From the sequence record PP047754: a DNA stretch of 64,000 bases, one strand, 5' to 3'. This DNA comes from Escherichia phage KEP4. A program made the translations under genes and the position numbers. Under the pieces are notes generated by a model that searched no databases, was not told where the DNA came from, and saw nothing but the letters and a program-made list of their open reading frames with translations. How positions within the stretch are numbered: the first letter of the stretch is position 1; each line of letters starts with the position of its first letter. This document shows positions 102 to 29,142 of the stretch, piece by piece.

Positions 102-158
102 AGTGTTCCCTCCCTTCCATGCAACTAACTTTACTACAATTATTTATTGAATAAAGCG

Positions 159-728
159 TTATTTTAACACTTCTAACTTCACAACACGACGCAGAAGGTA
201 AACATATTCGCCAGCAGCTTCATGCGTCATATAATGGGTAGAAGGTGTGGAATGATTGTTCTGGGTTTCTTTTAATCCAACACGTTCTGCCCAACCATTA
301 ATAGAGTTCCCATAGAAACCGATAATCGCGCCAAAATAAATGCGCTGGCTTTCTGGCTCTAAAACATAGTTGACAGTGAAGCAAATATCAGAACGAATAG
401 ACTCCAGTTTCATACCAACACGACCTTCGGAGAATTCGTTACGAACATATAAATGACGGAAACGATCGCGCCGCGCTTGTGATGATTCTTCCAATTCTTG
501 TCGGAGTGAAGAAGTTACGTCAATATTAAATGAAAATGTTGGATTCTGTAAATCGGAACGGGCCAACTCTAACGCAGATTCAACAACGCGACGGAAATTG
601 ATACTTTTACCTGTCAGGCGTTTCACTTCATCTGTGATTGTTCCAAAAGGGATTTTCGTGGCGCGTTCCCCTTCGTATTTTGCCAATAAAGGAATAATGT
701 GTTTCATGATTGCTGTGTTAATGTGCAT
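159..728 (-). CDS. hypothetical protein (189 aa)
   Basis: 569-nt minus-strand ORF; GAGG SD 9 nt upstream of ATG at 728; no recognisable motif. Confidence 0.55.
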   Translation of the reverse strand: MHINTAIMKHIIPLLAKYEGERATKIPFGTITDEVKRLTGKSINFRRVVESALELARSDLQNPTFSFNIDVTSSLRQELEESSQARRDRFRHLYVRNEFSEGRVGMKLESIRSDICFTVNYVLEPESQRIYFGAIIGFYGNSINGWAERVGLKETQNNHSTPSTHYMTHEAAGEYVYLLRRVVKLEVLK

Positions 729-1044: not shown

Positions 1045-1051
1045 CTAAATA
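1045..1051 (+). promoter_or_regulatory. late-promoter-like box CTAAATA
   Basis: CTAAATA about 40 nt upstream of the baseplate gene start; analogue of the T4 late promoter TATAAATA. Confidence 0.4.
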
Positions 1052-1091
1052 TCTTCAACACCATATTCAAACTCAGGTGATGGAGATTATC

Positions 1092-3711: not shown

Positions 3712-3713
3712 AA

Positions 3714-4904: not shown

Positions 4905-4909
4905 AACTA

Positions 4910-4946
4910 AATACCCCTAGATGACATGAATACATTTAGGGGTATT
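4910..4946 (+). promoter_or_regulatory. hairpin fused to late-promoter box (CTAAATACCCC at 4907-4917); 10-bp stem aataccccta/taggggtatt
   Basis: perfect inverted repeat 4910-4919 / 4937-4946; right-arm GGGG lies 8 nt before ATG 4951. Confidence 0.6.
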
Positions 4947-4950
4947 ACAA

Positions 4951-7900
4951 ATGGCCAACAAACCAACACAGCCTCTTTTCCCTTTGGGTTTAGAAACTTC
5001 TGAGTCTTCGAACATAAAAGGCTTCAACAACTCCGGCACTATTGAGCATTCCCCTGGTGCCGTAATGACATTTCCTGAAGATACTGAAGTTACAGGTCTT
5101 CCATCTTCTGTGCGTTACAATCCTGATAGTGATGAATTTGAAGGTTATTACGAAAACGGTGGTTGGTTGTCTTTGGGTGGCGGCGGAATACGCTGGGAAA
5201 CGCTCCCTTACGCTCCCTCTAGCAATTTGTTAGAAGGTCGCGGCTATCTCATTAATAATACGACAGGGACTTCTACAGTGGTTCTCCCTTCCCCTACGCG
5301 CGTTGGTGATTCAGTTACAATTTGTGATGCCTATGGGAAATTCGCGACGTATCCATTGACTGTATCTCCAGCGGGAAATAACCTGTACGGCTCCACCGAA
5401 GATATGACGATATCCACCGATAACGTGTCGGCGACTTTCACTTGGTCTGGTGCCGAGCAGGGTTGGGTTGTTACATCTGGTGTTGGCCTCGGCCAAGGTC
5501 GTGTGTACAGTCGTGAGATTTTCACTCAAATTTTAGCATCTGAAACAAGTGCTGTCACTCTCAATACTCCACCAACAATCGTGGACGTGTATGCTGACGG
5601 AAAACGTCTTGCGGAATCCAAATATTCACTAGATGGGAATGTAATCACTTTCGACCCTTCTTTACCTGCCAGCACTGAATTGCAGGTAATAGAATATACT
5701 CCGATTCAGTTGGGCACTGGCGGCGGGGGTTCGGGCGCTTCTGCAATCACCTGGATTTACAATGGCGGATCCGCTATTGGTGGCGAAACCGAAATAACGC
5801 TAGATATCGTTGTAGATGATGTTCCGGCTATTGATATAAACGGGTCTCGTCAGTACAAAAATCTTGGATTCACGTTCGACCCATTGACGAGTAAAATCAC
5901 TCTGACGCAAGAACTGGAACCAGAAGATGAAGTTGTTGTGGTTATAAATGGGACACCAAACATTTATAACCAAATCGATCGTTCTTTACAGGAAGTTGCT
6001 CGCGCCTACAATTTTACAAATGCTCAAGTTATTTTGAGCAACGATTATACTTCTGTTCTGGATAATAAAGTCGTTATTTATGATACGACATCCCAACGTT
6101 CTTGGGGGATTCCATCTGGAATCCCAGCAGGTTCTACAGTGGTTTCCGTCAATGGGGATCAACTGAAGTACAAAAATGGATCAACTGAAACCACTGTTAC
6201 ATTGGTGAGTGTACCAGGTAGTGCAGAGAAATTGAAGAACGATCTGGCTTCAAACTCTGGTTCAGGTATGTTGAAAACTTCTAGAGGTGATACCGTAGAA
6301 GAAGAATTGACTTTCATTAATCAGAATATGGTCGTTCAAATTTCAGATTTCGCGAGTCTTAGAACTTTAGTGCCAGCCACAGCGGGTATCCGAGTCAAAT
6401 TGAAAGGTTATTATTCTGGTTCTGAAATCGGTGGCGGAGAATTCATTTCTGTCGCTGGAGATGCTGTTGATGATGCTGGGATGATTGCTCGAGTGTCAAG
6501 CAGCTTCTATTGGAAGAGAATTATCGACAAACACATTACTCCTGGCATGTATGGCATCAAAGGGAATCTTCCAGAAGATCCGGCAGTGAAACTGAACGCT
6601 ATGTTTACGGCTGCGGCTGCGGCTAACGCTTATGTCTTACTGAACGATGTCGACACTCTGGTCTGTAAAAGCCCTGTCGTGATTCCAGCACATTCATTAG
6701 TGTACGGCAACAAACGAACTATACTGAAACGTGATGCATCGTTGTCATATGCTAATGATTTCTTGACAATTATGAATGATTCATATGTCAAGGGGATCTA
6801 TGTTGATGGTAGCCGTTTAGATTCTCAGACTCCTCTAGAAGCAGTTTTGGTGCGTATCGCTGGGAATGTAACTATCCATAAGAGTGAGATCCGAAACAAT
6901 GCTGGCTATGGCGTTGTTGGTAACGCAGTCCCTGGTATTCGTATCACCAAGAACATTTTTTCCAACTTCGCCAAAGGTTGTGTAGCCATGTTTGGCGACG
7001 GAACAGCGACGAGTGATGATCTGCAAATTAATGATAACAGATTCTTTAACCTGGGCGCGGGAACCATTTATGTTGGCGGTTACTCAAACTTCCTTGTCGA
7101 CAAAAACGTCGGAAGAGGCACTTACGTGGGTTCTCCAGGAAACCGTCTGTATGTTGTGACCAATACTAACGGGACTATCACCCAAAGCGCTGGGCCAGAT
7201 TTTGGGCCATTGAAAACGGGTATGTTCTTTGTATTGCCTGGTGGTTCTGAACATATGATAACGGCGGTCAACAGCCTTACCAGTGTGACAGTAACCCCAC
7301 CACCGCCGTCGAACGCCACAGTTCGTGCAATCGCAGGGACAGGGGATCTTCTGGGCATCCAATCATGCTCCTACGGCACCATCAGCCGTAACAACCTGAC
7401 CGATTGCGTGACTTACGGAACTGGTGGAGGCACGATGGAGGGGAGCACTCTGGGTTGCAATTATGTCACTTGGGAAGACAACTTCATCCGCAACACAGGT
7501 AAGAACGGAATCAACGTCGGGCAATCAGGCGCTGGGGTTGCCACGTGTTCTATCCTGAGGAACACTCTGATACAGGTTGGTAACGGCGGTCAGGGTGTTG
7601 GCCCAGCGTATCTTCTGCCTTGGTTCGATACGCTAGGTATCGCTCTGTATCAGGGAAACCCAGGTTATATGGCGAATATGGACGTCAGTGATAACAACGT
7701 CTCTACATGGTCTGGCGATCTGAATGACGGCGCTGCTTGGTTTGGTATGAGCGGTTGTACGGAAGCCACTGTGACTTGTACAGGCAACAAATCTTCTGGT
7801 TATTCCGACGGCTATGTTCGTGGAGATATATTAGAAGTCACGTTGACAGGTTATGGTACAGGGGCGGCTGCGACTTCATTCGTTAGTGATGGTGAGTCTA

Positions 7901-8124
7901 TACAGATAACCGTTCAAACAGGTACTTCACCAACAGCTTCACCTTATTTTTCAGTGCGGAAGGCGATCCGCACCCGCCATCAACCGATGATAACGGCGCA
8001 GATCGTCACCACAACTGGGAACATGTCTCATTGTTGGGGTATGCAATCTAGTACAGCAGGAAACTGGATGGTGGGTCAGAATACAACTCCTTCGGGGCTT
8101 ACGACATATTACGCAAAAGGGTAA
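4951..8124 (+). CDS. tailspike protein, long form (1057 aa) with N-terminal attachment domains and a C-terminal beta-helix-like region
   Basis: shares an internal module with ORF 10771 (SLQEVARAYNF...VVIYDTTSQRSWGIPSGIP vs SIQEIARSANV...VVYDVAAQTSYGLPTIP); Gly/Asn-rich periodic C-terminus. Confidence 0.7.
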   Translation: MANKPTQPLFPLGLETSESSNIKGFNNSGTIEHSPGAVMTFPEDTEVTGLPSSVRYNPDSDEFEGYYENGGWLSLGGGGIRWETLPYAPSSNLLEGRGYLINNTTGTSTVVLPSPTRVGDSVTICDAYGKFATYPLTVSPAGNNLYGSTEDMTISTDNVSATFTWSGAEQGWVVTSGVGLGQGRVYSREIFTQILASETSAVTLNTPPTIVDVYADGKRLAESKYSLDGNVITFDPSLPASTELQVIEYTPIQLGTGGGGSGASAITWIYNGGSAIGGETEITLDIVVDDVPAIDINGSRQYKNLGFTFDPLTSKITLTQELEPEDEVVVVINGTPNIYNQIDRSLQEVARAYNFTNAQVILSNDYTSVLDNKVVIYDTTSQRSWGIPSGIPAGSTVVSVNGDQLKYKNGSTETTVTLVSVPGSAEKLKNDLASNSGSGMLKTSRGDTVEEELTFINQNMVVQISDFASLRTLVPATAGIRVKLKGYYSGSEIGGGEFISVAGDAVDDAGMIARVSSSFYWKRIIDKHITPGMYGIKGNLPEDPAVKLNAMFTAAAAANAYVLLNDVDTLVCKSPVVIPAHSLVYGNKRTILKRDASLSYANDFLTIMNDSYVKGIYVDGSRLDSQTPLEAVLVRIAGNVTIHKSEIRNNAGYGVVGNAVPGIRITKNIFSNFAKGCVAMFGDGTATSDDLQINDNRFFNLGAGTIYVGGYSNFLVDKNVGRGTYVGSPGNRLYVVTNTNGTITQSAGPDFGPLKTGMFFVLPGGSEHMITAVNSLTSVTVTPPPPSNATVRAIAGTGDLLGIQSCSYGTISRNNLTDCVTYGTGGGTMEGSTLGCNYVTWEDNFIRNTGKNGINVGQSGAGVATCSILRNTLIQVGNGGQGVGPAYLLPWFDTLGIALYQGNPGYMANMDVSDNNVSTWSGDLNDGAAWFGMSGCTEATVTCTGNKSSGYSDGYVRGDILEVTLTGYGTGAAATSFVSDGESIQITVQTGTSPTASPYFSVRKAIRTRHQPMITAQIVTTTGNMSHCWGMQSSTAGNWMVGQNTTPSGLTTYYAKG

Positions 8125-8137
8125 TATTGAATGCCTA

Positions 8138-8171
8138 AATACCCCATATTGGTCATCCTTTATGGGGTATT
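8138..8171 (+). promoter_or_regulatory. hairpin fused to late-promoter box (CTAAATA 8135-8141); 11-bp stem aataccccata/tatggggtatt
   Basis: perfect inverted repeat 8138-8148 / 8161-8171; GGGG 7 nt before ATG 8175; near-identical copy at 10726-10765. Confidence 0.65.
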
Positions 8172-8174
8172 ATC

Positions 8175-10715
8175 ATGATTTCTCAATTCAATCAACCACG
8201 CGGTTCCACTTCCATAGAAGTTAACAAACAATCTATCGCTCGAAATTTCGGTGTCAAAGAAGACGAAGTCGTTTATTTCACTGTCGGTATTGACCTCAGT
8301 GGATTTAAAGTAATTTATGATGAGTCTACCCAACGGGCTTATTCTCTCCCTTCCGGTATTGTTTCAGGGACAACTGCAATTAGTCTGGATGAAAGAGCTA
8401 TCCTCACTCATTCTTCTGGCTCTGTTGACCTTGGGGAATTAGCAGTAAGCCGCGAAGAATATGTGACTTTACCTGGTTCTTTTAATTTCGGCCATACCAT
8501 TAATGTGAAAAATGAACTTCTTGTTCACGATGATGAAAAATATCGATGGGATGGTTCTTTGCCAAAGGTAGTTGCCGCTGGTTCTACACCCGATAACTCA
8601 GGCGGTGTTGGCACAGGCGCGTGGATACCTGTTGGCATTAATTCTTTGTCTGGCGATGGTGGTTGGTCGCGTATCGGATCAGAATTTGGTAAATCTTTGA
8701 AAGAACATATTCAAAGTCTTCCCAGCTTGTCTGCTGTCAAATATATGACATTTGTTGAATACGCAGCCCTTTTGGCAGGAAACGACACGGTCAATCATGA
8801 CGTTAAAGTTCAGCAAGTTATGGATGAAGCGCATGAATTGAAATGCTCTGTTTATTTTCCAACAGGGCGTTATGTATTTGACACTGCAGTCAACGTTTGG
8901 ACATACGTTCGCGCTGTTTGGGGAGACGGTTCGGCCATTATCACCAGACGTTACGGAAGTCAGTTTAGTTCCCCTGGGGTGATAGATCCGGCGCATGATA
9001 CGCGTAAATTATTCCGAATGATGGGCGGAGCGTTGGGACCGCAGTCTATTCATGGTCTTATTATTGATGGTAATGCGCGTTCATTTACAGTCCCAAAACA
9101 TACTGATTCGGATCAAACTTATCCCAACCAAACTTATTATGGCGATGTTGAACCAGTCGATGTTGGCCCATATGTATTTGGACCGGAAGGAAATACTTCT
9201 GTTCCTGGCGCTTCTTACTATAACCATGATAAGAAAGAATCCGGTCTGACCGTTTTCGATATGGTGTTTAAAGATCAACCTGGTGGTGGTGTCGTAGGTA
9301 ATGGCCAAAACGTCCGTGTGTTTGGAAATCACTTTATGGGTTGGTATGACCATGCTGTGTATATCGCCGGAAGTAACTTTGCCTCGGAAGGAGACGGAAT
9401 TTTGTGTAGTGATATTGTTGTCACTGGTAACGTATTCCGAAATCGTATTAACAATCGAGGCAATGGAGCAGTCAAAGCACGATTTGGTGTTAATCGTTAC
9501 GCAGTTACAGGCAACTCCTTTGATATAGTTGACTATTGCATGGCATTTGAGATGGGTAATGGACCAGCGACTCAACCATTTGGCCAAATTGTTGTGGACG
9601 GCAACGTGTGCACTTCAGATGGTATGTTTATGCAAATCGGGAATGATATTGGGACTGAGTGGTTCTCGACCAATTGGCTCAAATCAATGACTATTACGAA
9701 TAACACAGCACGGTCGTTGGATCGCATTTTCTTGTTAGGGGTTAGCGGATCTTCCAGTTATATTATGGATGGGTTTTCTGTACAAGTGGCCAATAACCGA
9801 TTTTATGCGCCGTCATTTTTGTCCGTGTACACATTCATGACGAATACGGAATGGATGTTGAATAACAATATCGTGGAGATCACAGGAACTGCTATGATCA
9901 CAGGAGTTGATCAATCGAACATCAACAATTCACGGATATATCTTAAAGATAATGTTTTAGGAGTTCTCCGGACTGATGTTCAAGGTTATGCTGCAGTCAG
10001 TAATTTTCAACAAGTTGAAATTTCTAATAATACATTGCGTAATTTGTATTTCCAAATAGGAAGTTATACCACAGATCTGTTTATTAAAGGAAATACTGTT
10101 AACTACACATCTGCATTATCCAGTAAAAACTTGGCGCTCATGTATTCAAGTGCTGGGAATGGTTTGATAACAGCCGATATCAGTGATAATAAGTTTTTCG
10201 GTGGAGTTGGTCGTTGCCAACTTAAATTCAGTAGCAGCGCTTCTCTGGATTGTATTAACAACAAATTCTTTACAACTTCGGCACCGTTTTTGGAATTGCA
10301 TCCGGCTGGTTATACTCCACGTGTCGTTCGTATAAAGGACAATTTAATGCGTGGTGCAGGCGTATTGCTGGCTCCTCTTGCTTCTGGTGTTTCTTTGTCC
10401 GGTGCTGGGAATTATATGGTAATTTCGGGAAACACGTTGATGGCTAATAACCCATCTGCGCCTGAAAATATAACTTTGTATCAGGACACAGGTGCGCAGA
10501 GTTGGGTGGCCCATTATGAAACTATCAGATGTGTTCGAAATGATTTCAAATCTGCGCTGTTGGCGATTAATGCAACAGGGACAGCACAATCTGGTTTGAG
10601 TACTACCAATAAATTCTGGTTCGGGGATAACGCGACGATTAATACCACGGTTGTTTGTACTTATCCTGCTGGCAACAAAGCCAACACCGACATCACCCAG
10701 ACAGTTTCAGTTTAA
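8175..10715 (+). CDS. tailspike protein (846 aa), parallel beta-helix type
   Basis: N-terminal ~150 aa paralogous to ORF 13591; middle region has pectate-lyase-like repeats (GNGQNVRVFGNHF, VTGNVFRN, VTGNSFD). Confidence 0.7.
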   Translation: MISQFNQPRGSTSIEVNKQSIARNFGVKEDEVVYFTVGIDLSGFKVIYDESTQRAYSLPSGIVSGTTAISLDERAILTHSSGSVDLGELAVSREEYVTLPGSFNFGHTINVKNELLVHDDEKYRWDGSLPKVVAAGSTPDNSGGVGTGAWIPVGINSLSGDGGWSRIGSEFGKSLKEHIQSLPSLSAVKYMTFVEYAALLAGNDTVNHDVKVQQVMDEAHELKCSVYFPTGRYVFDTAVNVWTYVRAVWGDGSAIITRRYGSQFSSPGVIDPAHDTRKLFRMMGGALGPQSIHGLIIDGNARSFTVPKHTDSDQTYPNQTYYGDVEPVDVGPYVFGPEGNTSVPGASYYNHDKKESGLTVFDMVFKDQPGGGVVGNGQNVRVFGNHFMGWYDHAVYIAGSNFASEGDGILCSDIVVTGNVFRNRINNRGNGAVKARFGVNRYAVTGNSFDIVDYCMAFEMGNGPATQPFGQIVVDGNVCTSDGMFMQIGNDIGTEWFSTNWLKSMTITNNTARSLDRIFLLGVSGSSSYIMDGFSVQVANNRFYAPSFLSVYTFMTNTEWMLNNNIVEITGTAMITGVDQSNINNSRIYLKDNVLGVLRTDVQGYAAVSNFQQVEISNNTLRNLYFQIGSYTTDLFIKGNTVNYTSALSSKNLALMYSSAGNGLITADISDNKFFGGVGRCQLKFSSSASLDCINNKFFTTSAPFLELHPAGYTPRVVRIKDNLMRGAGVLLAPLASGVSLSGAGNYMVISGNTLMANNPSAPENITLYQDTGAQSWVAHYETIRCVRNDFKSALLAINATGTAQSGLSTTNKFWFGDNATINTTVVCTYPAGNKANTDITQTVSV

Positions 10716-10730
10716 ATTGAATTGAGCCTA

Positions 10731-10765
10731 AATACCCCATATTGGCAAATCCTTTATGGGGTATT
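10731..10765 (+). promoter_or_regulatory. hairpin fused to late-promoter box (CTAAATA 10728-10734); copy of the 8138 element
   Basis: inverted repeat 10731-10741 / 10755-10765; the in-frame ATG at 10756 lies inside the right arm. Confidence 0.65.
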
Positions 10766-10770
10766 TTCAA

Positions 10771-13536
10771 ATGACCAGAAATGTAGAAGAATTATTCGGC
10801 GGCGTAATCACAGCTCCCCACCAGATTCCTTTCACTTATAAATCAAGTGTCGGTGGAGAAACTTTCTTTTCTCTACCTTTCTATCCTGTCACTGGCGTAG
10901 TCACAATTAACGGCGGCATGCAAGTTCCGTTAGACAACTTCGAGATAGACGGGAATACGTTGAATCTCGGGCGCGCATTGTCCAAAGGCGATGTTGTGTA
11001 TTGCTTATTCGATAAAATTCTTTCACCAGAAGACACTGCCAAAGGCATCCGCATATACAAATTTCAAGCCGTGGGTGGAGAAACTGAATTCACGCCTGAC
11101 TTTACTTCTTATGGTGTACAGTCTCTTTATATCGGTGGCGAATACAAAACTCCTGATATAGAATATTCCTATAACAGCACGACAGGGAAAGTGTCTTTGC
11201 AAACTGCATTGACTGCAGGCGTTTGGGTAGTCGCTGAAATGTCTGTTAAACAACCGAATATCAGTCCGGCGTTTGATCGCAGTATTCAAGAAATTGCCCG
11301 TTCTGCTAATGTGAAAGACTCTGAAGTCATCGTTAGTACGGACACCATATCTTTATTGGATGGGAAGAAAGTTGTTTATGACGTAGCGGCGCAAACCAGT
11401 TATGGCTTACCAACCATTCCTGATGGTTCTGTCATTTCTTCTGTTAGTAATGGGCAACTTACTTATAATCCAGGTAATGTTGTAGTGGATTTGTTACCTT
11501 TAGAAGATTCATTTATTAATGTGATAAACACTCTGGGGCGCAATGATGGTGCCAAGTATATCGGAGAATGCCATTCTGTTGCTGATCTCAGGAATACTGA
11601 ACCCACTATGGATGGACAACGCATTATTCTTAAGCAACACACTGCGGGTACTCTTCTTGGTGGAGGGGTATTCCGTGCGTTAATTGATGGTACAGGAAAG
11701 ACTGATGATAACGGCACTGTGATCAAAACTGTTGGCGGCGCAGCCTGGTTACGTGTTAATGCTGATAGAGTTAACCCATTCATGTTTGGTGCTTTGGGCG
11801 GTTCTAATGATGATACTATTCCAGTACAATCTTGTGTGGACAGTGGTAAGGCCACACAATTAACTGGTGTACATTACGTTAGCAATATCCGGTTAAAATA
11901 TAATACGTCGTCTATTTATGGGTCTGGATTACATTACTCCAGGTTGCATCAGTTGCCTTCTGCTACTGGGAATTGTATTACCATAAAAGATACATGCTCC
12001 CTTATTGTATTAGACTCCTTTGGGGTATATGGCACAGGTGCACAACAAGGCACATCATTTACTGCGGGTACAACAGGTATCTATATAGAAACTCCTTCAG
12101 GTCTCTCAGCCGATTATCCGTTCCACACTACCGCAGACCCAAGACGCGACTTGTGTATTTCTAAGGTCCATATAGCAGGTTTTGATGAATATGGGTTAAA
12201 TATTGATAGTGGTAACTTTAGTGTTACTACAGATTCTCTTTTAGTCAACCACATCAATCAGGTGGGCGTCCGTTGTGCTACTACTGATTGGACTTGGACA
12301 AATATTCAGGTTAATACCTGCGGTAAACAATGTCTGGTTCTTGATGGTTGTGGTAATGGTCGTATTATTGGTGGTAAATTCATTTGGGCTAACTGGCAAC
12401 CTTATGGTACAGTAGGACAGTTCCCAGGCATTACTATTAATAATAGCCAGAATATGGTTATTAATGGTATTGAGGTACAAGATTGTGGCGGGAATGGCAT
12501 TGAGATTAGCGATTCATATTCAATTTCCATGAACGGATTGAACACCAATCGTAACGGCATCAACGCTAACAACACTTTCTACAACATCGTATTTAACAAA
12601 AGTGATGCAGTTATCAACGGATTCGTAGGACTCAATTATGCTGCGAATAGTGGTTCAGGTGCTAACTCTAGTGCAGGCAATTTTCAGTTCCTGTCTAATG
12701 ATTGCAGCGTCACCATTAATGGTGTGGTTGAGACTGGTTATATGGGCATTAACTTTATTGGTGATAACAATATTATCAACCCCACAAATTCCGAACTGAG
12801 CATTAACGGATTGGTTAATTATTCCAAGACTGGTTTGCAAACCATGAACGAGACCCCTACATTTGATGGTGTTAGCACTACACCTGTTTATGTAAGTGTC
12901 CCATCTTCTGTAGGGCAAGTAAATGGTCTGAGACTATCACAAGCCAACAAAGATAAATTACTGTACTCAAGAACAGCAGGTCCAGAAGGTATTACCATGG
13001 CTGCTGTTGTAGTACCTACCATATCTGGAGCTGAAGTATTTAACTTCATGGCCATTGGTTCAGGGTTTAGTGATACATCCAACAGTCTTCATCTTCAATT
13101 AGTTATAGACGCTTCTGGAAAACAAACAATTGCTTTGCTATTGGGGGGCGATGGTACAACCCAAATTTTATCTGGGGATTTACCTAACGACCTTAAACTA
13201 CAAAGTGGTGTGCCATATCATATAGCTATTGGTGCTAAACCTGGATATTTCTGGTGGAGTATTCTTAATATTCAGACGGGTAAGAGAATCAGACGGTCAT
13301 TCCGAGGCGCTTATTTAGCTGTACCATTTAATTCTATATTCGGATTAACTTCTTCATTAACATTCTTCTCGGATAGCAATGCTGGTGGGGATGCCTGTTC
13401 TGGTGTAGGTGCTAAAGTGTATGTTGGTATGTTCTCTTCTGAGAATGATTATGTAGCTTCACGGTACTACAACCTGATTAATCCTGTAGACCCTAATAAG
13501 TTAATTAGTTACCGTATATTGGATTCTTCTATTTAA
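10771..13536 (+). CDS. tailspike protein (921 aa) with N-terminal attachment domains and beta-helix
   Basis: start set to ATG 10771 (hairpin-spacer-ATG as at 4951 and 8175) rather than track ATG 10756; repeats GNGRIIGG, NGIEVQDCGGNGIEISD. Confidence 0.7.
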   Translation: MTRNVEELFGGVITAPHQIPFTYKSSVGGETFFSLPFYPVTGVVTINGGMQVPLDNFEIDGNTLNLGRALSKGDVVYCLFDKILSPEDTAKGIRIYKFQAVGGETEFTPDFTSYGVQSLYIGGEYKTPDIEYSYNSTTGKVSLQTALTAGVWVVAEMSVKQPNISPAFDRSIQEIARSANVKDSEVIVSTDTISLLDGKKVVYDVAAQTSYGLPTIPDGSVISSVSNGQLTYNPGNVVVDLLPLEDSFINVINTLGRNDGAKYIGECHSVADLRNTEPTMDGQRIILKQHTAGTLLGGGVFRALIDGTGKTDDNGTVIKTVGGAAWLRVNADRVNPFMFGALGGSNDDTIPVQSCVDSGKATQLTGVHYVSNIRLKYNTSSIYGSGLHYSRLHQLPSATGNCITIKDTCSLIVLDSFGVYGTGAQQGTSFTAGTTGIYIETPSGLSADYPFHTTADPRRDLCISKVHIAGFDEYGLNIDSGNFSVTTDSLLVNHINQVGVRCATTDWTWTNIQVNTCGKQCLVLDGCGNGRIIGGKFIWANWQPYGTVGQFPGITINNSQNMVINGIEVQDCGGNGIEISDSYSISMNGLNTNRNGINANNTFYNIVFNKSDAVINGFVGLNYAANSGSGANSSAGNFQFLSNDCSVTINGVVETGYMGINFIGDNNIINPTNSELSINGLVNYSKTGLQTMNETPTFDGVSTTPVYVSVPSSVGQVNGLRLSQANKDKLLYSRTAGPEGITMAAVVVPTISGAEVFNFMAIGSGFSDTSNSLHLQLVIDASGKQTIALLLGGDGTTQILSGDLPNDLKLQSGVPYHIAIGAKPGYFWWSILNIQTGKRIRRSFRGAYLAVPFNSIFGLTSSLTFFSDSNAGGDACSGVGAKVYVGMFSSENDYVASRYYNLINPVDPNKLISYRILDSSI

Positions 13537-13540
13537 AAAT

Positions 13541-13562
13541 ATACCCCTCTTCGGAGGGTATT
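13541..13562 (+). terminator. terminator-like hairpin (tacccctc-ttcg-gagggta) followed by TTT
   Basis: GC stem with ttcg tetraloop directly after stop 13536; shares the ATACCCC motif with the promoter hairpins. Confidence 0.5.
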
Positions 13563-13590
13563 TACTAGAGAAAAACAGGAGATTCTTATT

Positions 13591-15825
13591 ATGAATCCGC
13601 AATTTGCTCAACCAAAAGGTTCTACTTCAAAAGAATCGAATAAAGATAGCATCGCCCGTAAATTTGGGTGCAAAAAGTCGGAAGTCGTTTATGCGAAATC
13701 AGGACAGTCCTTGTCTGGTTATAAGGTTATTTATGACAAGGAAACACAGAGAGCGTATTCCTTGCCTGTAGATATTCCAGCAGGAACCACGGTTATTAGC
13801 CTTAGCGCCAGTGCTCTGCTTGTACACTCTGGGGGTTCTGTAGACCTGGGCGAACTAGCTTCCCAACGCAATGAATATAATGTATTACCTGGTTCTTTTA
13901 CTACTGGTGCAATAGTATCCACAAAGAATGATGTACTTACCCACAATGGTATCCAGTATCGTTGGAATGGTTCATTACCTAAAGTTGTACCTCAGAACTC
14001 TTTACCATCCAGTGATGATAATTGGATTGGCTTGGGTGCTTCTTATCTGAAGGAACAGCTTAACAGTACCAGTGGTGCATCCATGGTAGTACTGGCTAAT
14101 GGCAAAACCATTGAAGAAGAATTTGCCGAAGAAGCTGCATGGCAGAACCAAGAGAATATGGTGAGAACCGTTATTCCTAATGTTTATCACCATATCCGTG
14201 GCGTTCAGCGTCACTCTGGTAAAAACTTAGCATGGTCTGCTCCAGACGTTGCTATTGATAAACTTAACCCTACGGATACCGTCTTCTACCGTATGCCCCA
14301 GATTGTTAAAACTGGTGATGGTACTCTGATGATTTTCTGTAATGAGTTGCATGGTAACAATACAGATATTGGTGCTACTCCAGATCAGCAATGTAATATC
14401 GTTATGAAATACTCCATTGATAATGGGTGGTCTTGGTCGGCTAAGGTAGTGGTAGCTAACTTTGGGGCTACGTATCAGAACGGTGAGATTGCTGCTGTGT
14501 ATAACCCAGCAGATGGTCGGGTATACTGTTACTTTACTTCCTGCAAAGGCCAGTTGGGTTGGGGATACTCACAGCCAGGCAATGACCCTAATACATCATC
14601 CCAGATATATGTTACCTACTGTGATGCGGAAGCTCCTACTATATGGCGTACACCAGCTAACCTTACTGCTACCCTTAAGCCAGCAACGGCAGATTTTATC
14701 TGGACTTCACCAACTAAACCAGTTGTTTTACCGGATGGTAAGATGGCAATGATTGTGTCTACCGTCACTGGTTCACGGGTTGATTCTTTCCTTACCATCA
14801 TGAAGTATGACATTAAGTACAGCATGGACTACGTACTTAGTTCCGAAGAATCTGGTGGGGAAGTCGGACTGAACCTTTTGCCGGATGGTCGTATGGTGAT
14901 GAACTCTCGTGCTTACCACACCACAGACCTTAAAGGGCTTCAGAAATTCTATATCAGTGATCATCAGTTTAAGAACTGGCAGCACTTATCTGATTTAGTT
15001 ACATCGGATAGTAAGGGTGACCTGGTTCCTATTTTTGATGGGGTTAATGGTGTTCTTACTTGGGCGTTTACTTGTGCTAATGGTGTAGGTGATAATTCTA
15101 TTGGTCGTACTAACTACCGAGTATGGATTAGTCGTGACCTAGTTACTTGGGGGTTAGCTCCTACTGGGGATATCAACACAAGTGATTCTGTTGGGTACAT
15201 CGCATCAATGCCTGGTGGTGATGATGGTTATGTAATCTCTACATCTGAATCAGGTGGTTTTGGTGGTATTTGGTTTACTCAATGGAATGCTAAGTATATC
15301 CAGAACAGAAACTACAACCGCTATCACAAAGAGTTGCGAGAATTAGAGTCAGTAGATGAAACAGCAATGCTCGCATCCGGTGCTATTCCTAACTACTCTT
15401 TTTACGTAAACAAAGACTCCAACCTAATTAACTTCAACCGCAACGGTACTCCAGTTAAGATTCAGCAGTTGGGGGTTAGTCAGAATGCTGTTGATAAGTA
15501 CACTACAACTCAGACCCTAGCATCTATTCCTGTAGATGGTGTTGATATTGTATTAGTCACTGGTTCTGGTACTACTCTTACCCTTAGTGGGTTTAGCGGT
15601 GGATATATGGGCCAGCGTGTGACAGTTATCTCTGATTCATCTGGTGGTGGGGTGGTGCTTAAACGTGCTGATACAACATTGCCTACTGTAACGGACAGAT
15701 TCCACTTTAATGTGGCAGGAGCCTTTACTGCTTTGAGGGTAGACTATGCAACTAAGATGATGGCTACTTTAGTTAAGACTCCATCTGGTTGGTTCACGGA
15801 AAGTATTGCTAACGTAACAATCTAA
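13591..15825 (+). CDS. tailspike protein (744 aa) with sialidase/BNR-like beta-propeller catalytic domain
   Basis: AGGAG SD 9 nt upstream; N-terminal anchor domain paralogous to ORF 8175; FYRMPQIV (RIP-like) motif and Asp-box SIDNGWSW. Confidence 0.65.
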   Translation: MNPQFAQPKGSTSKESNKDSIARKFGCKKSEVVYAKSGQSLSGYKVIYDKETQRAYSLPVDIPAGTTVISLSASALLVHSGGSVDLGELASQRNEYNVLPGSFTTGAIVSTKNDVLTHNGIQYRWNGSLPKVVPQNSLPSSDDNWIGLGASYLKEQLNSTSGASMVVLANGKTIEEEFAEEAAWQNQENMVRTVIPNVYHHIRGVQRHSGKNLAWSAPDVAIDKLNPTDTVFYRMPQIVKTGDGTLMIFCNELHGNNTDIGATPDQQCNIVMKYSIDNGWSWSAKVVVANFGATYQNGEIAAVYNPADGRVYCYFTSCKGQLGWGYSQPGNDPNTSSQIYVTYCDAEAPTIWRTPANLTATLKPATADFIWTSPTKPVVLPDGKMAMIVSTVTGSRVDSFLTIMKYDIKYSMDYVLSSEESGGEVGLNLLPDGRMVMNSRAYHTTDLKGLQKFYISDHQFKNWQHLSDLVTSDSKGDLVPIFDGVNGVLTWAFTCANGVGDNSIGRTNYRVWISRDLVTWGLAPTGDINTSDSVGYIASMPGGDDGYVISTSESGGFGGIWFTQWNAKYIQNRNYNRYHKELRELESVDETAMLASGAIPNYSFYVNKDSNLINFNRNGTPVKIQQLGVSQNAVDKYTTTQTLASIPVDGVDIVLVTGSGTTLTLSGFSGGYMGQRVTVISDSSGGGVVLKRADTTLPTVTDRFHFNVAGAFTALRVDYATKMMATLVKTPSGWFTESIANVTI

Positions 15826-15831
15826 AATACA

Positions 15832-15857
15832 AGCCCCCAATAAGGGGGCTTTCTTTT
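15832..15857 (+). terminator. rho-independent terminator (agccccc-aataa-gggggct + TTCTTTT)
   Basis: 7-bp GC stem plus U-tract after the tailspike block. Confidence 0.75.
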
Positions 15858-15915
15858 GCTATGTCTCGTTAACCTGACAGGAACTGGAAGTTCAAAACTA
15901 TCTATTGGCTGTATA

Positions 15916-21095: not shown

Positions 21096-21420
21096 AAGAT
21101 CTGGGCTTGATATCCGTGGTATCTTGACTGCTGTCGTGGCTTCTGCATTGGTCTCGGCGGCGTCGTTCCTTTGGTTTATGGGTGGGATGGAAACACGCGT
21201 GAATGTATTGGAGCGAGATTCTAATAAAATGGATCAGGTCCTTCAAAAGGTGAATGACATGAGTGAGCGCATGGCGATCATGAATACAGACCTCGCATAT
21301 GTCAAACAAAATATGGCTGAGTTAAAACTCAATAGCAGCAGCCTATCAGACGATGTCCGCACATTGCGGATTACTGTATCTGATTTGCAGCAACGAGGGA
21401 ATAACAATGGCCGTCAATAA
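21079..21420 (+). CDS. hypothetical membrane-anchored coiled-coil protein (113 aa)
   Basis: GAAGGAGG SD; N-terminal TM helix ILTAVVASALVSAASFLWFMGG then coiled-coil-like region. Confidence 0.5.
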   Translation: MATQAERSGLDIRGILTAVVASALVSAASFLWFMGGMETRVNVLERDSNKMDQVLQKVNDMSERMAIMNTDLAYVKQNMAELKLNSSSLSDDVRTLRITVSDLQQRGNNNGRQ

Positions 21421-22159
21421 AATTCGCGACAAGAAATCTTTTATGAACTATGTCTTGCGTAAATTGGGCGCTCCGGTCATCCAAATTAACCTTGACAGTT
21501 CACAAGTAGAAGATGCTGTTGATGATGCTCTACAGAAGTTTTGGGAATATCATCGCGACGGTAGCCAAGATGCGTTCTTCCTGTACCAAGTTAAGCAAGA
21601 AGATATCGACAAGGGTTATATTGAATTCCCAGAAGATATTGACGATGTGATTGAAGTTATCCCTGGACCTCCTATTGAGTCAATTGGAAACTGGGCAACT
21701 CCTCAATGGCAAATGGCCCAAGCCATGCTTGTACCAAAAGCGGCGCTTGTGTCTATTCGTCTCATTGATTACGTTTCCATGCAACAGCGCCTGTCTGATA
21801 TCACAAGCGTCTTGAATGTTCGTCGTAATTTTGTGTACAAGAAGTTCCAGCGACGCCTTTACCCGCAATTTGCTGCCACCATTGATGAAACTCTGGCTTT
21901 CCGTTGTTATCAGAATATCGACCCCGAATCGGAAGAAAACGCTGAAGCATGGAATGACATGTGGTTGAAAGCGTATGCGACTGCATTGGTTAAGCGCCGT
22001 TGGGCAGAGGTGCTTAAGAAGGCAAGAGGCATCCGTCTCCCAGGTGGTATCGAACTGGATGGTGATAGTATGTTCAGTGAGGCCGAGACCGAGATAGAGC
22101 GGTTGGAGGAAGAATTGCGTACTGGTCAGCAATACCCTATCGATTTTATGATGGGATAA
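21407..22159 (+). CDS. neck protein (T4 gp13-like)
   Basis: motifs LRKLGAPVIQINL, FWEYHRDG and C-terminal YATALVKRRWAEVLKKARGIRLPGGIELDG resemble T4 gp13; synteny. Confidence 0.75.
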   Translation: MAVNKIRDKKSFMNYVLRKLGAPVIQINLDSSQVEDAVDDALQKFWEYHRDGSQDAFFLYQVKQEDIDKGYIEFPEDIDDVIEVIPGPPIESIGNWATPQWQMAQAMLVPKAALVSIRLIDYVSMQQRLSDITSVLNVRRNFVYKKFQRRLYPQFAATIDETLAFRCYQNIDPESEENAEAWNDMWLKAYATALVKRRWAEVLKKARGIRLPGGIELDGDSMFSEAETEIERLEEELRTGQQYPIDFMMG

Positions 22160-22162
22160 GAG

Positions 22163-22189
22163 AAGGCGGGATAACCCGCCTTTCTTTTT
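22163..22189. terminator. bidirectional hairpin terminator (aaggcggg-ataa-cccgcctt, T-run on + side)
   Basis: follows gp13-like stop (22159) and overlaps the stop of the convergent minus gene (22188). Confidence 0.7.
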
Positions 22190-22400
22190 ATAACTTGATG
22201 TCGCGTTCGGAAGGATTTGAATTTGCTAGAATATAACCATCAACCACGTTCTTTTCATCCCACCATTCAATAAAATCATTCCCATCTTTGCCTTTAATAA
22301 GACCCACAATGTTATAAGAATTATTTGCGACTTTAGCGTCCACACAGATAATTCTCACACGCCTTCCGTCACGAGTTTCTTTAATATCTTCAACCTTCAT
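22188..22400 (-). CDS. hypothetical small protein (70 aa) on the opposite strand inside the neck module
   Basis: minus-strand ORF with GAGGA SD 9 nt upstream of ATG 22400. Confidence 0.5.
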   Translation of the reverse strand: MKVEDIKETRDGRRVRIICVDAKVANNSYNIVGLIKGKDGNDFIEWWDEKNVVDGYILANSNPSERDIKL

Positions 22401-22431
22401 TTATCAATTCCTCAAAAGAATTAATGATTGA

Positions 22432-22456
22432 CTAAATACCTTCAAAATTGAGGGTA
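22432..22456 (+). promoter_or_regulatory. late-promoter box CTAAATA plus hairpin (taccttc/gagggta) whose 3' arm GAGGG is the SD of the next gene
   Basis: same architecture as the tailspike-upstream elements; 7-bp stem with one G-U pair. Confidence 0.5.
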
Positions 22457-22461
22457 AAGTC

Positions 22462-23103
22462 ATGGCTACTTCAAAATATTTCAACTATACAGCACACCAA
22501 GGTACTCAGAAATTAATTGACGACTTGGTGGTCGAGATGATACAACTACGTGGGATTGACGTCAAGTATATTCCACGTTCCATCGTTGAAAAATACCCAA
22601 TTTTAAACGAGGCTGAACATAAATTCGACCAGGCGTTCGATATCGAAGTATACATGCAAGATTACCAAGGCTTTAACACCCAAATGTGGGAGAAGTTTGG
22701 CGGTATTCAATTACAAGATGAAGTGACGTTCACCATTGCTCGTCGCCGTTTTTCGGAAGTGATTGGTAATGGGCCAGGACTTGAGCAGATGCCTCAAGAA
22801 GGTGATTTGATATACCTCCCAATGGCGAACAAGATATTCAAAGTGAATAACCCGAATAACGACGAAGAATTTATGCAATTCGGTAAATGGTACACATATT
22901 CCTTACCGTGCACGTTGTTCCAATATGGTAATGAAGATTTTGATACTGGTGTATCTGAAATTGACGACATCGATAAACGTTTACAAGATCTAGACGGCGA
23001 TGGTGTCTATAAAGATGCCAGTCTACAGACAGATAACCAATTTGCGGACGAAATAGAGAAAGATCTTTCGCCCAATAAAATGAAGATAGACTTCGGGGAA
23101 TAA
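22462..23103 (+). CDS. neck protein (T4 gp14-like), tentative
   Basis: 213 aa; assigned by position between gp13-like and gp15-like genes. Confidence 0.55.
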   Translation: MATSKYFNYTAHQGTQKLIDDLVVEMIQLRGIDVKYIPRSIVEKYPILNEAEHKFDQAFDIEVYMQDYQGFNTQMWEKFGGIQLQDEVTFTIARRRFSEVIGNGPGLEQMPQEGDLIYLPMANKIFKVNNPNNDEEFMQFGKWYTYSLPCTLFQYGNEDFDTGVSEIDDIDKRLQDLDGDGVYKDASLQTDNQFADEIEKDLSPNKMKIDFGE

Positions 23104-23806: not shown

Positions 23807-24487
23807 ATGAGCAATATGTCAGAAAGGTTACTTGCGACGCTAGACGCGGTGACTGCCAGAGATGAAGTTGGTAAGGAGGCGATGGAAGCCGTCTCTCCAC
23901 GTCCAGGTATTGACTTCGATGAAAAAACGGGCGAGTGGTTTGGTGAACGCCCAGAAGGTTATCAGCCGATTCCAGAACCTCCATCATTGGAAGATATCGC
24001 GTCCAAAGAATCCAAGGTTCCGGAGTTTGCGGATACTGATGCCACAACAGATTACAAGCGGATACGCGACACAACATATGCCATGCAAGAAGCCACGATG
24101 TTCATGATGGGGCAAGCTGCTAAATTAGCTGCATCTACCGAAGCCCCAAGAGCGTTTTCCGTGTTTCGTGAATTGGGCGAACTCATGCGCGGCCTGAACA
24201 AAGACCTGATGGAAAACCAAAAAACCATCAAAGCTGTGACAGGGGATAAAGAACCGCCGACTGATGACACAACCGTGGATGTTACCACTTCACCCGACGG
24301 GACCACAACAGTATCTGTTGGGAAGAAAGCGAGATCTTCGCGCGATTTATTGAAAACGATCGAAGATGCACGCCGCCGCGCTGAAGAACGCGCCCAGGCA
24401 AAAGCCACCCAACAAACCGAAGATGAAATTATCGACGGAGAAACGGTTGACGTGAAGGAAGAAGACGATGGCGTATCAGAAGCGTGA
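23807..24487 (+). CDS. terminase small subunit (T4 gp16-like)
   Basis: GGAGGA SD 6 nt before ATG 23807 (track start 23801 is TTG); segment MQEATMFMMGQAAKLAAS...FRELGELMRG resembles T4 gp16; directly upstream of TerL and overlapping it. Confidence 0.7.
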   Translation: MSNMSERLLATLDAVTARDEVGKEAMEAVSPRPGIDFDEKTGEWFGERPEGYQPIPEPPSLEDIASKESKVPEFADTDATTDYKRIRDTTYAMQEATMFMMGQAAKLAASTEAPRAFSVFRELGELMRGLNKDLMENQKTIKAVTGDKEPPTDDTTVDVTTSPDGTTTVSVGKKARSSRDLLKTIEDARRRAEERAQAKATQQTEDEIIDGETVDVKEEDDGVSEA

Positions 24488-26678
24488 TATAGAATATGCT
24501 CCGATAAAAACGGGGTTTAAAATCGACGACGTGAAATTGCGTATGGACCAGACGTTCATGCGCAAGCCTTCTGTGCGCGCTCCACGAGTCGAGTTGATGC
24601 TAACAGATGAACAAGAAGACGAATTTGTTGAATGTTCAATGGACGCGCATTACTTCGCTGCCAATTACTATAAGATAACGACAATCGATAAAGGCTTTAT
24701 CCTTTTCGATATGCATGATTATCAGAAACAATTATTTCACGATTTTCAAGATTATCGTTTCAATGCCGTTGTCCAGGCGCGTCAGTCCGGTAAATGCGTC
24801 CGTGGTGATACTCTTGTTTATGTCTATGATACAGTCAGTCAACAAGAGTTGCATCTCACCATAGAAGAGCTTCACAAGCGCTTCGAAGGACCGAACCATG
24901 CTGTGCCACTGAATACCATTGGCAACCACAATAAGTTTGTAGACAGCCGTTTCGGGAAACGATATTTTGTTGAGTCCGACACTGGCTGGGTTCCGGTTAT
25001 TGCCGCTCATAAAACGAAAGAATACGCTGAATACGTGGTCAGGACTGAAACCGGACGCACAATTCATGTCGCAGATGAGCACATGTTCTTCAATGAATAT
25101 GGGCGCGAAGTATTTGCTAAAGACATGGAGGCCGGAGATGCCATAATGACCCAGGAGGGAATAGAATTCATCTCTGAGATCTGGGAGACTGGTGAGTACC
25201 ACCACATGTATGACTTGCAAGTCAAGTCCAGCGATCAACGTTATTACACGAATGGGTTCCTCAGCCATAATACCACGGTCGTGGCTGCGTTTCTTCTTTG
25301 GTATGCGATGTTCCACTCAGACAAAGAAATCGCGGTACTGGCAAACAAAGAGAAACAAGCGATTGAAATTCTTGACCGTATCAGGAAGGCGTATCAGGAC
25401 CTCCCATTCTTCCTTCAGCAGGGTTGTGAGAAGTTTGGTTCTACACTGATAGAGTTTGAGAACGGCTCTAAGATATATGCTTATGCAACGTCTTCGGACT
25501 CTATTCGTGGTCGTTCTGTATCTCTCTTGTACGTGGACGAAGTCGCATTCATCGAAAATGACTTTGAATTTTGGGAATCAACATTCCCAGCGATCGCATC
25601 TGCTGATACTTCACGTTGTATTCTGACCAGTACTCCGAAAGGCCAGCGAGGGTTGTTCTATGATATCGTCACCAAAGCAGACCCGCGCCATCCGCAATAC
25701 AACGACTTCCATCTTACCGAAGTCCCTTGGTACAAGGTTCCGGCGTACACCAAAGACCCTGATTGGGAAACCAAACAACGCGCTCGTCTGGGGGATGCCC
25801 GTTTTGACCAGGAATTTGGAATCAAGTTCCGTGGTTCTGTAGGTTCATTGATACCAGCCAAATGCTTGGATAAAATGACATCCAAGTTATATCGAGAGCC
25901 TAATGAATTCACCAAAATTTACAAGGAATATGACCCGCAACGCATCTACTTCGGGATTGCAGATACGGGGAAAGGTGTTGAAGGAGATTATTCGGTTCTG
26001 ACAATTCTGGATATAACGGAATACCCGCATGTCATAGCGGCCAAGTACAGGAACAATACAATACCTCCGATGATGTATGCATACACGATAGCCGATATGT
26101 GTACTGAATACGGGGAATGCCCTGTCCTTGTAGAAACCAACAACGACGTTGGTGGACAGGTTATTACGATCTTGTATCAAGAAATTGAGTATCCAGAGAT
26201 CATATTCACGTCGACGGATAACAAAGGGACAGGGAAACGGATTGGTGGTCGTAAACCAGAGCCAGGCATTAACACCAACAGGAAAGTGCGATCTATTGGT
26301 TGTGCTAACCTGAAAGCGCTTATTGAGAAAGAAATGTTGGTGATTGAAGATCAAGACACGATAGATGAACTCAGCACATTCGTGTTCCGTGGTGCGCGTT
26401 ATGAAGCAGATGATGGATGTCACGACGACTGCGTTATGCCGTTGGTATTATATTCTTGGGCAGTTAAACAAGAATGGTTCAGTGATCTGACTTCTACCAG
26501 TATTTCTCAAGACATGAGAAATAGAATGTCTTCGACTGAGTCACAACAAGTATTCCCGTTTGGTGGTTTAGTCGTGGGAGACACTCCATCTGGAACTGAG
26601 CATCTCCCTGGGTTCGGTGGTGTTCAAGTCTTCGACGAACGTTCAGGGATGACCATGGATGAGTGGTTTAAGAATTGA
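24468..26678 (+). CDS. terminase large subunit (T4 gp17-like), intein-containing
   Basis: extein reads ARQSGK/TTVVAAFLLW (T4: SRQLGKTTVVAIFLAHF), downstream YVDEVAFI Walker B-like and nuclease region; 736 aa vs ~610 for T4. Confidence 0.9.
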   Translation: MAYQKRDIEYAPIKTGFKIDDVKLRMDQTFMRKPSVRAPRVELMLTDEQEDEFVECSMDAHYFAANYYKITTIDKGFILFDMHDYQKQLFHDFQDYRFNAVVQARQSGKCVRGDTLVYVYDTVSQQELHLTIEELHKRFEGPNHAVPLNTIGNHNKFVDSRFGKRYFVESDTGWVPVIAAHKTKEYAEYVVRTETGRTIHVADEHMFFNEYGREVFAKDMEAGDAIMTQEGIEFISEIWETGEYHHMYDLQVKSSDQRYYTNGFLSHNTTVVAAFLLWYAMFHSDKEIAVLANKEKQAIEILDRIRKAYQDLPFFLQQGCEKFGSTLIEFENGSKIYAYATSSDSIRGRSVSLLYVDEVAFIENDFEFWESTFPAIASADTSRCILTSTPKGQRGLFYDIVTKADPRHPQYNDFHLTEVPWYKVPAYTKDPDWETKQRARLGDARFDQEFGIKFRGSVGSLIPAKCLDKMTSKLYREPNEFTKIYKEYDPQRIYFGIADTGKGVEGDYSVLTILDITEYPHVIAAKYRNNTIPPMMYAYTIADMCTEYGECPVLVETNNDVGGQVITILYQEIEYPEIIFTSTDNKGTGKRIGGRKPEPGINTNRKVRSIGCANLKALIEKEMLVIEDQDTIDELSTFVFRGARYEADDGCHDDCVMPLVLYSWAVKQEWFSDLTSTSISQDMRNRMSSTESQQVFPFGGLVVGDTPSGTEHLPGFGGVQVFDERSGMTMDEWFKN
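24795..25271 (+). mobile_element. mini-intein (159 aa) inserted in the TerL Walker A P-loop between GK and T
   Basis: starts Cys (CVRGDTLV, block A), contains GRTIHVADEH (block B-like), ends FLSHN followed by Thr +1; no homing-endonuclease domain. Confidence 0.75.
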
Positions 26679-28683: not shown

Positions 28684-29142
28684 ATGATATACGCATACAA
28701 AATTGAAACGATAACTAATGGAAAGGTCTACATCGGTGTGACCAATCACCCACAACGAAGATATGATCAGCATTTTGCGAATGCTTTTCATCATGGAGTC
28801 CAAAGTGAATTGTATGATGCCATGCGTAAGTATGGAACATCTGGATTTACTTTCGTTGTAATTGCTCAGACCGATGAAGTCCATAAATGGGAATTAGAGA
28901 AGCAACTCATCGCTCAATATAATTCTTATGAGATGGGTTACAACATGAATAAAGGCGGTAATGATGGAAGTCATATGCTGGGTAAAACTGCAGCAAAATT
29001 GACATCTACAGGTGAACACATTGGTCTTGTTTCTCTCATAGATCCCCGTTGGGAATTGTGTGAAATCGAACCCGTTTTAAGCAATGTTGACCACGGATTT
29101 GATTTTTCTTCCATGAAGATTAAAAGATTGACGACTAATTAG
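28684..29142 (+). CDS. GIY-YIG nuclease (free-standing, homing-endonuclease-like; 152 aa)
   Basis: IYAYK...KVYIGVT...RRYDQH...E...YNMNKGG matches GIY / YIG / Arg / Glu / Asn catalytic pattern; inserted between sheath and tube genes. Confidence 0.7.
   Translation: MIYAYKIETITNGKVYIGVTNHPQRRYDQHFANAFHHGVQSELYDAMRKYGTSGFTFVVIAQTDEVHKWELEKQLIAQYNSYEMGYNMNKGGNDGSHMLGKTAAKLTSTGEHIGLVSLIDPRWELCEIEPVLSNVDHGFDFSSMKIKRLTTN

Follow-up and report, generated by a model that had tools for sequence, protein, structure and literature searches.

The gp13-like and gp14-like neck genes of Escherichia phage KEP4 are separated by a small protein-coding gene which lies on the opposite strand and is maintained by purifying selection. 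The locus as a whole is likely to represent a transcription-unit boundary occupied by an antisense accessory gene, which would share a terminator with gp13, would be expressed outside the late programme, and would encode a non-structural protein. The stretch of DNA analysed (64,000 nucleotides of record PP047754, hereafter the window) belongs, judging from its sequence, to a ViI-like Kuttervirus (Ackermannviridae), the region sharing 99.9% identity with Escherichia phage Sa157lw and 99.5% with Salmonella phage Vi01, both members of Kuttervirus in the Ackermannviridae. The features of the locus are the following:

21407 to 22159, plus strand: gp13-like neck gene (head-tail adaptor Ad2; PHROG 211, E 6.5e-43), convergent with the small ORF
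22150 to 22162, minus strand: weaker pyrimidine tract in the direction of the small ORF, reading CUCUUAUCCCAUC 3' of the stem (sequence and folds)
22162 to 22183, both strands: GC-rich hairpin with stem GAAGGCGGG/CCCGCCTTT and loop ATAA at 22171-22174 (terminator scan)
22181 to 22189, plus strand: T-tract TTTCTTTTT in the direction of gp13, overlapping the stop codon of the small ORF (sequence and scan)
22188 to 22400, minus strand: small ORF of 70 aa with an ATG start, PHROG 4466, predicted all-beta, corresponding to Sa157lw_00109, Marshall_46 and Sajous1 gp144
22409 to 22413, minus strand: Shine-Dalgarno sequence GAGGA of the small ORF, 9 nt 5' of its ATG
22432 to 22439, plus strand: late-promoter-type motif CTAAATAC, 23 nt 5' of the gp14 ATG
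22450 to 22454, plus strand: Shine-Dalgarno sequence GAGGG of gp14 (sequence; kept in the alignment of relatives)
22462 to 23103, plus strand: gp14-like neck gene (head closure Hc2; PHROG 679, E 4.3e-75), divergent from the small ORF
22537 to 22565, minus strand: alternative sigma-70-like candidate TTGACG-N17-TATCAT, antisense in gp14 (scan, 10/12 matches)
22565 to 22590, minus strand: candidate promoter TTCAAC-N14-TATACT, antisense in gp14 codons 35-43, with a predicted start near 22558

The gap between both neck genes (22160-22461) measures 302 bp, as had been originally predicted, and no ORF of at least 30 aa is found in it on the plus strand. The 70-aa minus-strand ORF with a Shine-Dalgarno sequence of its own, claimed in the same prediction, is likewise confirmed, and it constitutes a genuine protein-coding gene. 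The gp13-like gene, which is labelled 'neck protein, T4 gp13-like' in the records of phages Marshall, Sa157lw, and Vi01, ends in a TAA codon at 22157-22159 (plus strand), while the stop codon of the small ORF occupies 22188-22190 (minus strand), inside the T-run of the hairpin. These two convergent stop codons are thus 28 nt apart, with the hairpin filling the spacer between them. On the other side, the small ORF and gp14, whose product matches the Pfam family PF11649 T4_neck-protein (E 1.2e-26), are divergent and separated by a highly conserved spacer of 61 bp. The GAGGA sequence of the small ORF is invariant across an alignment of 24 distinct relatives.

This antisense arrangement is an ordinary one, already annotated and described, and it is not peculiar to one genome. 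The small ORF is deposited in GenBank as a hypothetical protein (Sa157lw_00109, Sajous1 gp144) and in the Vi01 record as a 'putative uncharacterised protein', and the record of phage Marshall annotates both the ribosome-binding site of the small ORF and a 'terminator' at the hairpin. The arrangement between the gp14 and gp13 homologues was also mentioned in 2012 in the paper on LIMEstone1 (PMC3296691). What is added here is the family-wide synteny, a boundary that is independent of the ORF, the covariation of the hairpin, a candidate for the antisense promoter, and a wider domain family.

The small ORF aligns with PHROG 4466, a family of unknown function, along its entire length (residues 1-70 on profile positions 1-70 of 70; E 5e-43). 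Homologues were identified by tblastn in 280 phage records, 278 of them with at least 80% query coverage, and each record holds one copy. Identity amounts to 87-100% within Kuttervirus, to 66% in Limestonevirus (tblastn), and to 40% in Erwinia phage Bue1. Among 27 homologues, with identities down to 59%, 30 residues are invariant, and they are concentrated in residues 3-47. The dN/dS ratio between genera is 0.08-0.25, with synonymous sites near saturation and a low dN. The encoded protein (8.0 kDa, pI 5.3) is modelled by AlphaFold as an all-beta structure with a pLDDT of 92 and a pTM of 0.78. The small ORF is therefore not incidental, since its protein is under purifying selection, shows 30 invariant residues, and is predicted to adopt a confident fold.

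A comparison of related genomes, which had been proposed along with the original prediction, shows that five genera hold the small ORF in the same antisense slot between gp13 and gp14, namely Kuttervirus, Taipeivirus, Agtrevirus, Limestonevirus, and Nezavisimistyvirus (Erwinia phage Bue1). The ORF is missing from the gp13/gp14 gaps of Serratia phage 3M (86 bp) and Vibrio phage K485 (59 bp), in which no gene lies between both neck genes; in 3M, the family was not found anywhere when the complete genome was searched in six frames with an HMM. With gp14 identities of 56-59%, roughly similar distances separate the core group, 3M, and Bue1 from one another, and these distances fit either a gain of the small ORF in an enterobacterial ancestor followed by its loss in 3M, or a later gain. 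A homologue of 94 aa (PHROG 4466, E 3e-13) is also encoded by Vibrio phage 1.255.O at an unrelated locus (L006 2465-3195). There, it lies on the strand opposite to its neighbours, beside gp25-like/PAAR baseplate genes, and the ORF that follows it (155 aa) matches no PHROG.

Some members of Kuttervirus, Agtrevirus, and Limestonevirus hold in this slot an additional gene of 235-238 aa, which encodes a T5orf172/MUG113 plus CapR endonuclease-like protein (PHROG 681). This gene is situated between gp14 and the small ORF, immediately upstream of the latter and on the same strand (positions 1725-2435 in the compared loci L004, L009, L012, and L026, and approximately 1753-2469 in L013, L015, and L019). 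Its insertion leaves duplicated first codons of gp14, together with the late promoter, beside the small ORF, with at least two junction variants, and it moves gp14 and the small ORF 0.7 kb apart, with both retained. LIMEstone1 and Limestonevirus share with the window the same slot and the same small ORF, but they carry in addition the endonuclease-like gene upstream, while the window has the small ORF only.

Two readings would deny the small ORF a role in the phage. With only 70 aa and no match in Pfam or NCBIfam, it might be taken for a chance open frame in a non-coding spacer, a reading that deserves practically no credence in view of the PHROG match, the low dN across genera whose synonymous sites are saturated, the conserved Shine-Dalgarno sequence and start codon, and the pLDDT-92 fold; the conservation pattern already rules it out. 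The second reading, in which the ORF is either a mobile cassette of recent origin or what remains of a homing-endonuclease cassette, draws on the gap being a hot spot for insertions, as illustrated by the PHROG 681 gene and the duplicated 5' remnant of gp14 in several genomes, and on the gaps of 3M and Vibrio phage K485, which are devoid of the ORF. Nevertheless, the small ORF occurs both in genomes that have the endonuclease gene and in those that lack it, 278 records contain it as a single, nearly full-length copy, its divergence parallels that of the adjacent genes (down to 40% identity in Bue1), and it is under purifying selection, all of which makes a dispensable cassette very improbable. 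The idea that the small ORF is itself a free-standing homing endonuclease was also discarded, as neither PHROG nor Pfam reveals a nuclease domain in it, in contrast to the neighbouring PHROG 681 gene, which has such domains.

The structure placed exactly between the two convergent stop codons has, as predicted from its sequence, the form of an intrinsic terminator, and it is conserved. The hairpin consists of a stem of nine pairs, six of them G-C, and a loop of 4 nt, followed on the plus strand by CTTTTTATAA. Its folding energy is -18.9 kcal/mol on the plus strand (z -4.3) and -17.7 kcal/mol on the minus strand (z -5.6), and none of 200 shuffled sequences folds as well. Covariation was analysed in an ungapped arm-loop-arm alignment, while the MAFFT alignment was left unused as it introduces gaps inside the stem. 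In ten distinct hairpins, drawn from five genera, standard pairs account for 95.6% of cells, and four of the nine pairs have changed on both sides among genera (pair 5, for example, changes from G-C to C-G). The stem of Bue1 is almost entirely different in sequence from the hairpins of the other genera. None of 500 shuffles reaches these covariation values, and control positions slid along the alignment show 40-75% pairing. In Rfam, no family matches the locus, and the only sub-threshold matches are to the terminator hairpin itself. Among close Kuttervirus genomes (22171-22174 in the window; loci L011, L015, L017, and L018), identical stems are closed by loops ATAA, TTAT, or TTAA, so that both orientations of the loop appear.

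Bidirectional intrinsic terminators between convergent bacterial genes are well established in Rho-independent termination. The hairpin resembles them in that a single GC-rich structure lies between two convergent stops, flanked by an A-rich and a T-rich tract that allow a hairpin with a U-tract to be read from either strand, but it departs from symmetric bidirectional terminators in that, as read from the sequence of the window, C residues break up the tract on the ORF side and the symmetry is imperfect. The U-tract on the gp13 side (UUUCUUUUU) is canonical here and in every genus compared. That on the ORF side (UUCUCUUAUCCC) contains seven U residues out of 12 and is C-interrupted in Kuttervirus, including the window; it is canonical in Taipeivirus (UUUUUGUUAU; the counterpart of the tract CUCUUAUCCCAUC reads UUUUUGUUAUCCC) and acceptable in Bue1 (CAGUUUUAUCC). 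The terminator scan called the site on the plus strand only. Termination should consequently be efficient for gp13, and it is probably weaker for the small gene in this genome, because the UUCUCUUAUCCC tract is interrupted. The original prediction, according to which the hairpin can end both transcripts, is supported on the gp13 side, where a canonical U-tract follows a conserved structure. Bidirectionality is plausible from the geometry and from the comparison within the family, and is only partly supported in this genome given the interrupted tract on the ORF side.

On the opposite side of the small gene, gp14 most likely has a gp55-type late promoter of its own, with the sequence CTAAATAcc at 22432. 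This assignment is based on the strand specificity and invariance of the motif, together with the existence of gp55, gp33, and gp45 homologues in the family, reported for CBA120, ViI, and AG3 (PMC3184105). Exact matches to CTAAATAC occur six times in the window, all of them on the plus strand, against 1.6 expected, and 10 of the 11 CTAAATA sites on this strand are located shortly upstream (within a few tens of bases) of plus-strand gene starts. Upstream of gp14, ACTAAATA is invariant in 24 of 24 distinct relatives, even where its flanks diverge. Two regulatory motifs, CTAAATAcCcc and TTCAAT[N14]TATAAT, have been cited for the family (PMC7283392). The early and late signals of Ackermannviridae have been reported as still largely undefined (PMC3184105), and no definition of a late motif was found in the papers on CBA120 and AG3. 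The gp55-dependent late promoter of T4 is TATAAATA, which differs from the CTAAATA motif of the window, although both are of an 8-nt type located near the start codon.

The neck module of T4 and T2 has the same gene order as that of the window (gp13, gp14, gp15, TerS, TerL). In T2, genes 13 and 14 are separated by 1 nt, with nothing between them, whereas in the window the antisense gene is interposed together with a predicted terminator and a distinct late promoter. The original prediction attributed the break of the T4-like neck module to the antisense gene and the hairpin. With respect to T2 the module is interrupted, but the same break exists without the ORF in 3M and K485, whose gaps contain a GC-rich hairpin after gp13 and then CTAAGTA or CTAAATA before gp14. 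The terminator/late-promoter boundary would therefore be independent of the small ORF, since both phages have the boundary without it, and the notion that the hairpin terminator arrived together with the ORF is not supported by their sequences either. Beyond annotation, the significance of a conserved transcription-unit boundary in the neck-packaging module of Ackermannviridae is small, although it is useful for transcription mapping and for the engineering of Kuttervirus phages for biocontrol against Salmonella and E. coli O157, and the strand-specific CTAAATA sites and the TTCAAT-N14-TATAAT-like antisense candidate provide concrete positions that can be tested.

The 400 nt that precede the small ORF on the minus strand contain no late motif, with up to one mismatch allowed. 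The gene is thus most likely early or at least non-late, as no late-promoter motif precedes it. The preferred candidate for its promoter, TTCAAC-N14-TATACT, shows two mismatches to the family motif TTCAAT-N14-TATAAT; matches at this two-mismatch level number 19 in the window against 11.6 expected, a modest enrichment. The candidate lies within the part of gp14 that is most conserved at synonymous sites: in codons 30-49 (22549-22608), the identity of synonymous codons among nine representative genes peaks at 0.78, compared with 0.56 overall, and the permutation p value of the best 20-codon window is 0.0016. Bue1 keeps GTCAAT-N14-TATACC at this site despite amino-acid replacements, and the -35-like element reads TTCATA in Taipeivirus. 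The coincidence of the motif and the synonymous peak is suggestive of a promoter embedded antisense in gp14, while the peak could also reflect some other constraint on the gp14 mRNA. No transcriptome of Ackermannviridae or Kuttervirus was found in the searched literature.

Other promoters considered fit less well. The sigma-70-like TTGACG-N17-TATCAT was ranked below TTCAAC-N14-TATACT, given that its -35 and -10 have decayed to TTGATG and AATCAT, respectively, in Agtrevirus. Candidates within the 61-bp spacer, for example TTGAAG-N16/17-(T)AATTC(T), were rejected as poor matches whose transcription start would overlie the Shine-Dalgarno sequence. Elsewhere in the window, a perfect TTCAAT-N14-TATAAT is located at 765-790 (minus strand), directly upstream of the minus-strand gene 159..728, where it is a likely early-type promoter.

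The small protein belongs to a wide family for which searches of Pfam, NCBIfam, PDB, and BFVD have provided no functional annotation. Neither its single profile nor a broad profile gave a usable match in Pfam, NCBIfam, or the PDB sequences. Foldseek found no solved structure matching at an E value better than 1 (the top ones are Sm proteins, with a TM score of 0.31), and it matched only uncharacterised phage proteins in BFVD. An assignment to the SH3-like/Sm-like small beta-barrels was discarded, as the model does not superpose significantly on any solved member. A profile search of 1.84 billion representatives retrieved 88 relatives, in which a module of approximately 65 residues, with the consensus TRDGRxVRI(I/L)CxDxK...YxIVGL...DGxE...DG...DL, appears either singly or two to three times in tandem.

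A second search with the broad alignment extended the family to approximately 195 proteins, many of them metagenomic, of around 120 aa and with precomputed tags for PF26890 'Phage_HP1_YO09'. These tagged homologues share with the small protein the N-terminal pattern 'FxLExAxxGxPVxTRxGxxxRI...YPxVxL'. Unlike many of these distant homologues, all Ackermannviridae members have '-' in the precomputed Pfam field and thus no tag for PF26890, the family of orf9 from Haemophilus phage HP1. The similarity of HP1 orf9 to the domain profile is weak (hhalign probability 43%, E 2.5e-4, 38 columns). HP1 orf9 is located in the early operon of that phage, directly upstream of rep, and the two homologues whose context was inspected are encoded on large metagenome contigs, within arrays of small genes of unknown function. 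Since this domain family is widespread and uncharacterised, and may be related to PF26890, any function found for one of its members would transfer to many phage proteins.

According to these data, the following model is proposed. The genes gp13 and gp14 would not be co-transcribed as a tight pair; instead, the gp13 transcript would end at the terminator and transcription would restart at the late promoter of gp14. The boundary would be occupied on the opposite strand by a small accessory gene, encoding the slightly acidic, 70-aa, all-beta protein, and a single hairpin would end both convergent transcripts. The small gene would be read from the TTCAAT-N14-TATAAT-type promoter placed antisense in gp14 codons 35-43, giving an mRNA with a leader of approximately 160 nt whose sequence would be complementary to the gp14 promoter and 5'UTR as well as to the first ~30 codons of that gene. 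The protein may act in the infected cell by binding a host- or phage-encoded partner through its beta module, and it is probably a non-structural, non-late accessory. In the mass-spectrometry table of LIMEstone1 virions (PMC3296691), ORF152/153 were not found, and gp144 was not found in the virion proteome of Sajous1, in which gp142, gp143, gp145, and gp146 were detected. This absence is a weak indication for a protein of 8 kDa, as small proteins are easily missed by mass spectrometry.

The location of the gene might be taken to mean that its product is a late morphogenetic factor, either a chaperone of neck or collar assembly or a minor structural protein working with the neck gene products. 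The slot between gp13 and gp14 is kept in five genera, position within a phage structural module often reflects function, and so small a protein can escape detection in virions. Nonetheless, the ORF is on the strand opposite to every neighbouring late gene and has no CTAAATA-type motif upstream, its product went undetected in LIMEstone1 and Sajous1 virions while those of flanking genes were detected, the family is entirely absent from 3M, whose neck genes are the same, and homologues are found at an unrelated locus in 1.255.O and, in the case of distant ones, among runs of uncharacterised small genes and in the early operon of HP1. A morphogenetic role is accordingly held to be unlikely. A somewhat different proposal is that the key product is the RNA, with the minus-strand transcript exerting cis-antisense regulation or transcriptional interference on gp14 and the ORF being secondary. 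Such a transcript would be complementary to the late promoter, Shine-Dalgarno sequence, and start codon of gp14, the candidate promoters inside gp14 coincide with the synonymous-site peak, and the 61-bp spacer is highly conserved. Yet the protein itself is clearly selected, with its 30 invariant residues and confident fold, the conservation of the spacer is explained by the late promoter and Shine-Dalgarno sequence of gp14 together with the Shine-Dalgarno sequence of the small ORF, the endonuclease insertion separates gp14 and the small ORF by 0.7 kb with neither being lost, and there is no match to an Rfam family. An RNA acting as the main product is hence quite improbable. A device combining both functions, in which an early antisense timer of gp14 (by cis-antisense or interference) would also encode the founding member of a small beta-domain family, distantly related to HP1 orf9/PF26890 and directed to a host or phage target, is regarded as doubtful. 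The preferred explanation is thus a boundary between transcription units that houses a selected antisense gene for a non-structural protein.

Several other features of the window deserve mention. Upstream of three tailspike genes (4907-4950, 8135-8174, and 10728-10770, plus strand), CTAAATAcccc forms the 5' arm of an inverted repeat of 10-11 bp. This repeat, AATACCCC(A)TA ... TA(T)GGGGTATT, stops just before the ATG, and would form a hairpin in the 5'UTR that overlaps the promoter. The tailspike region (1-15900) is not collinear with that of Sa157lw, differing in the sizes and positions of its ORFs, while the coordinates of both phages match exactly from 15956, an indication that the tailspike module of the source genome is mosaic. 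The large terminase gene (24468-26678, plus strand) encodes 736 aa, and the TerL of phage Marshall, with local coordinates identical to those of the TerL in the window, is annotated with an intein at Cys110-Asn268. Finally, a gene for a GIY-YIG endonuclease (28684-29142, plus strand) separates the genes of the tail sheath and the tail tube; the Sa157lw record annotates it, and 3M has a similar one.
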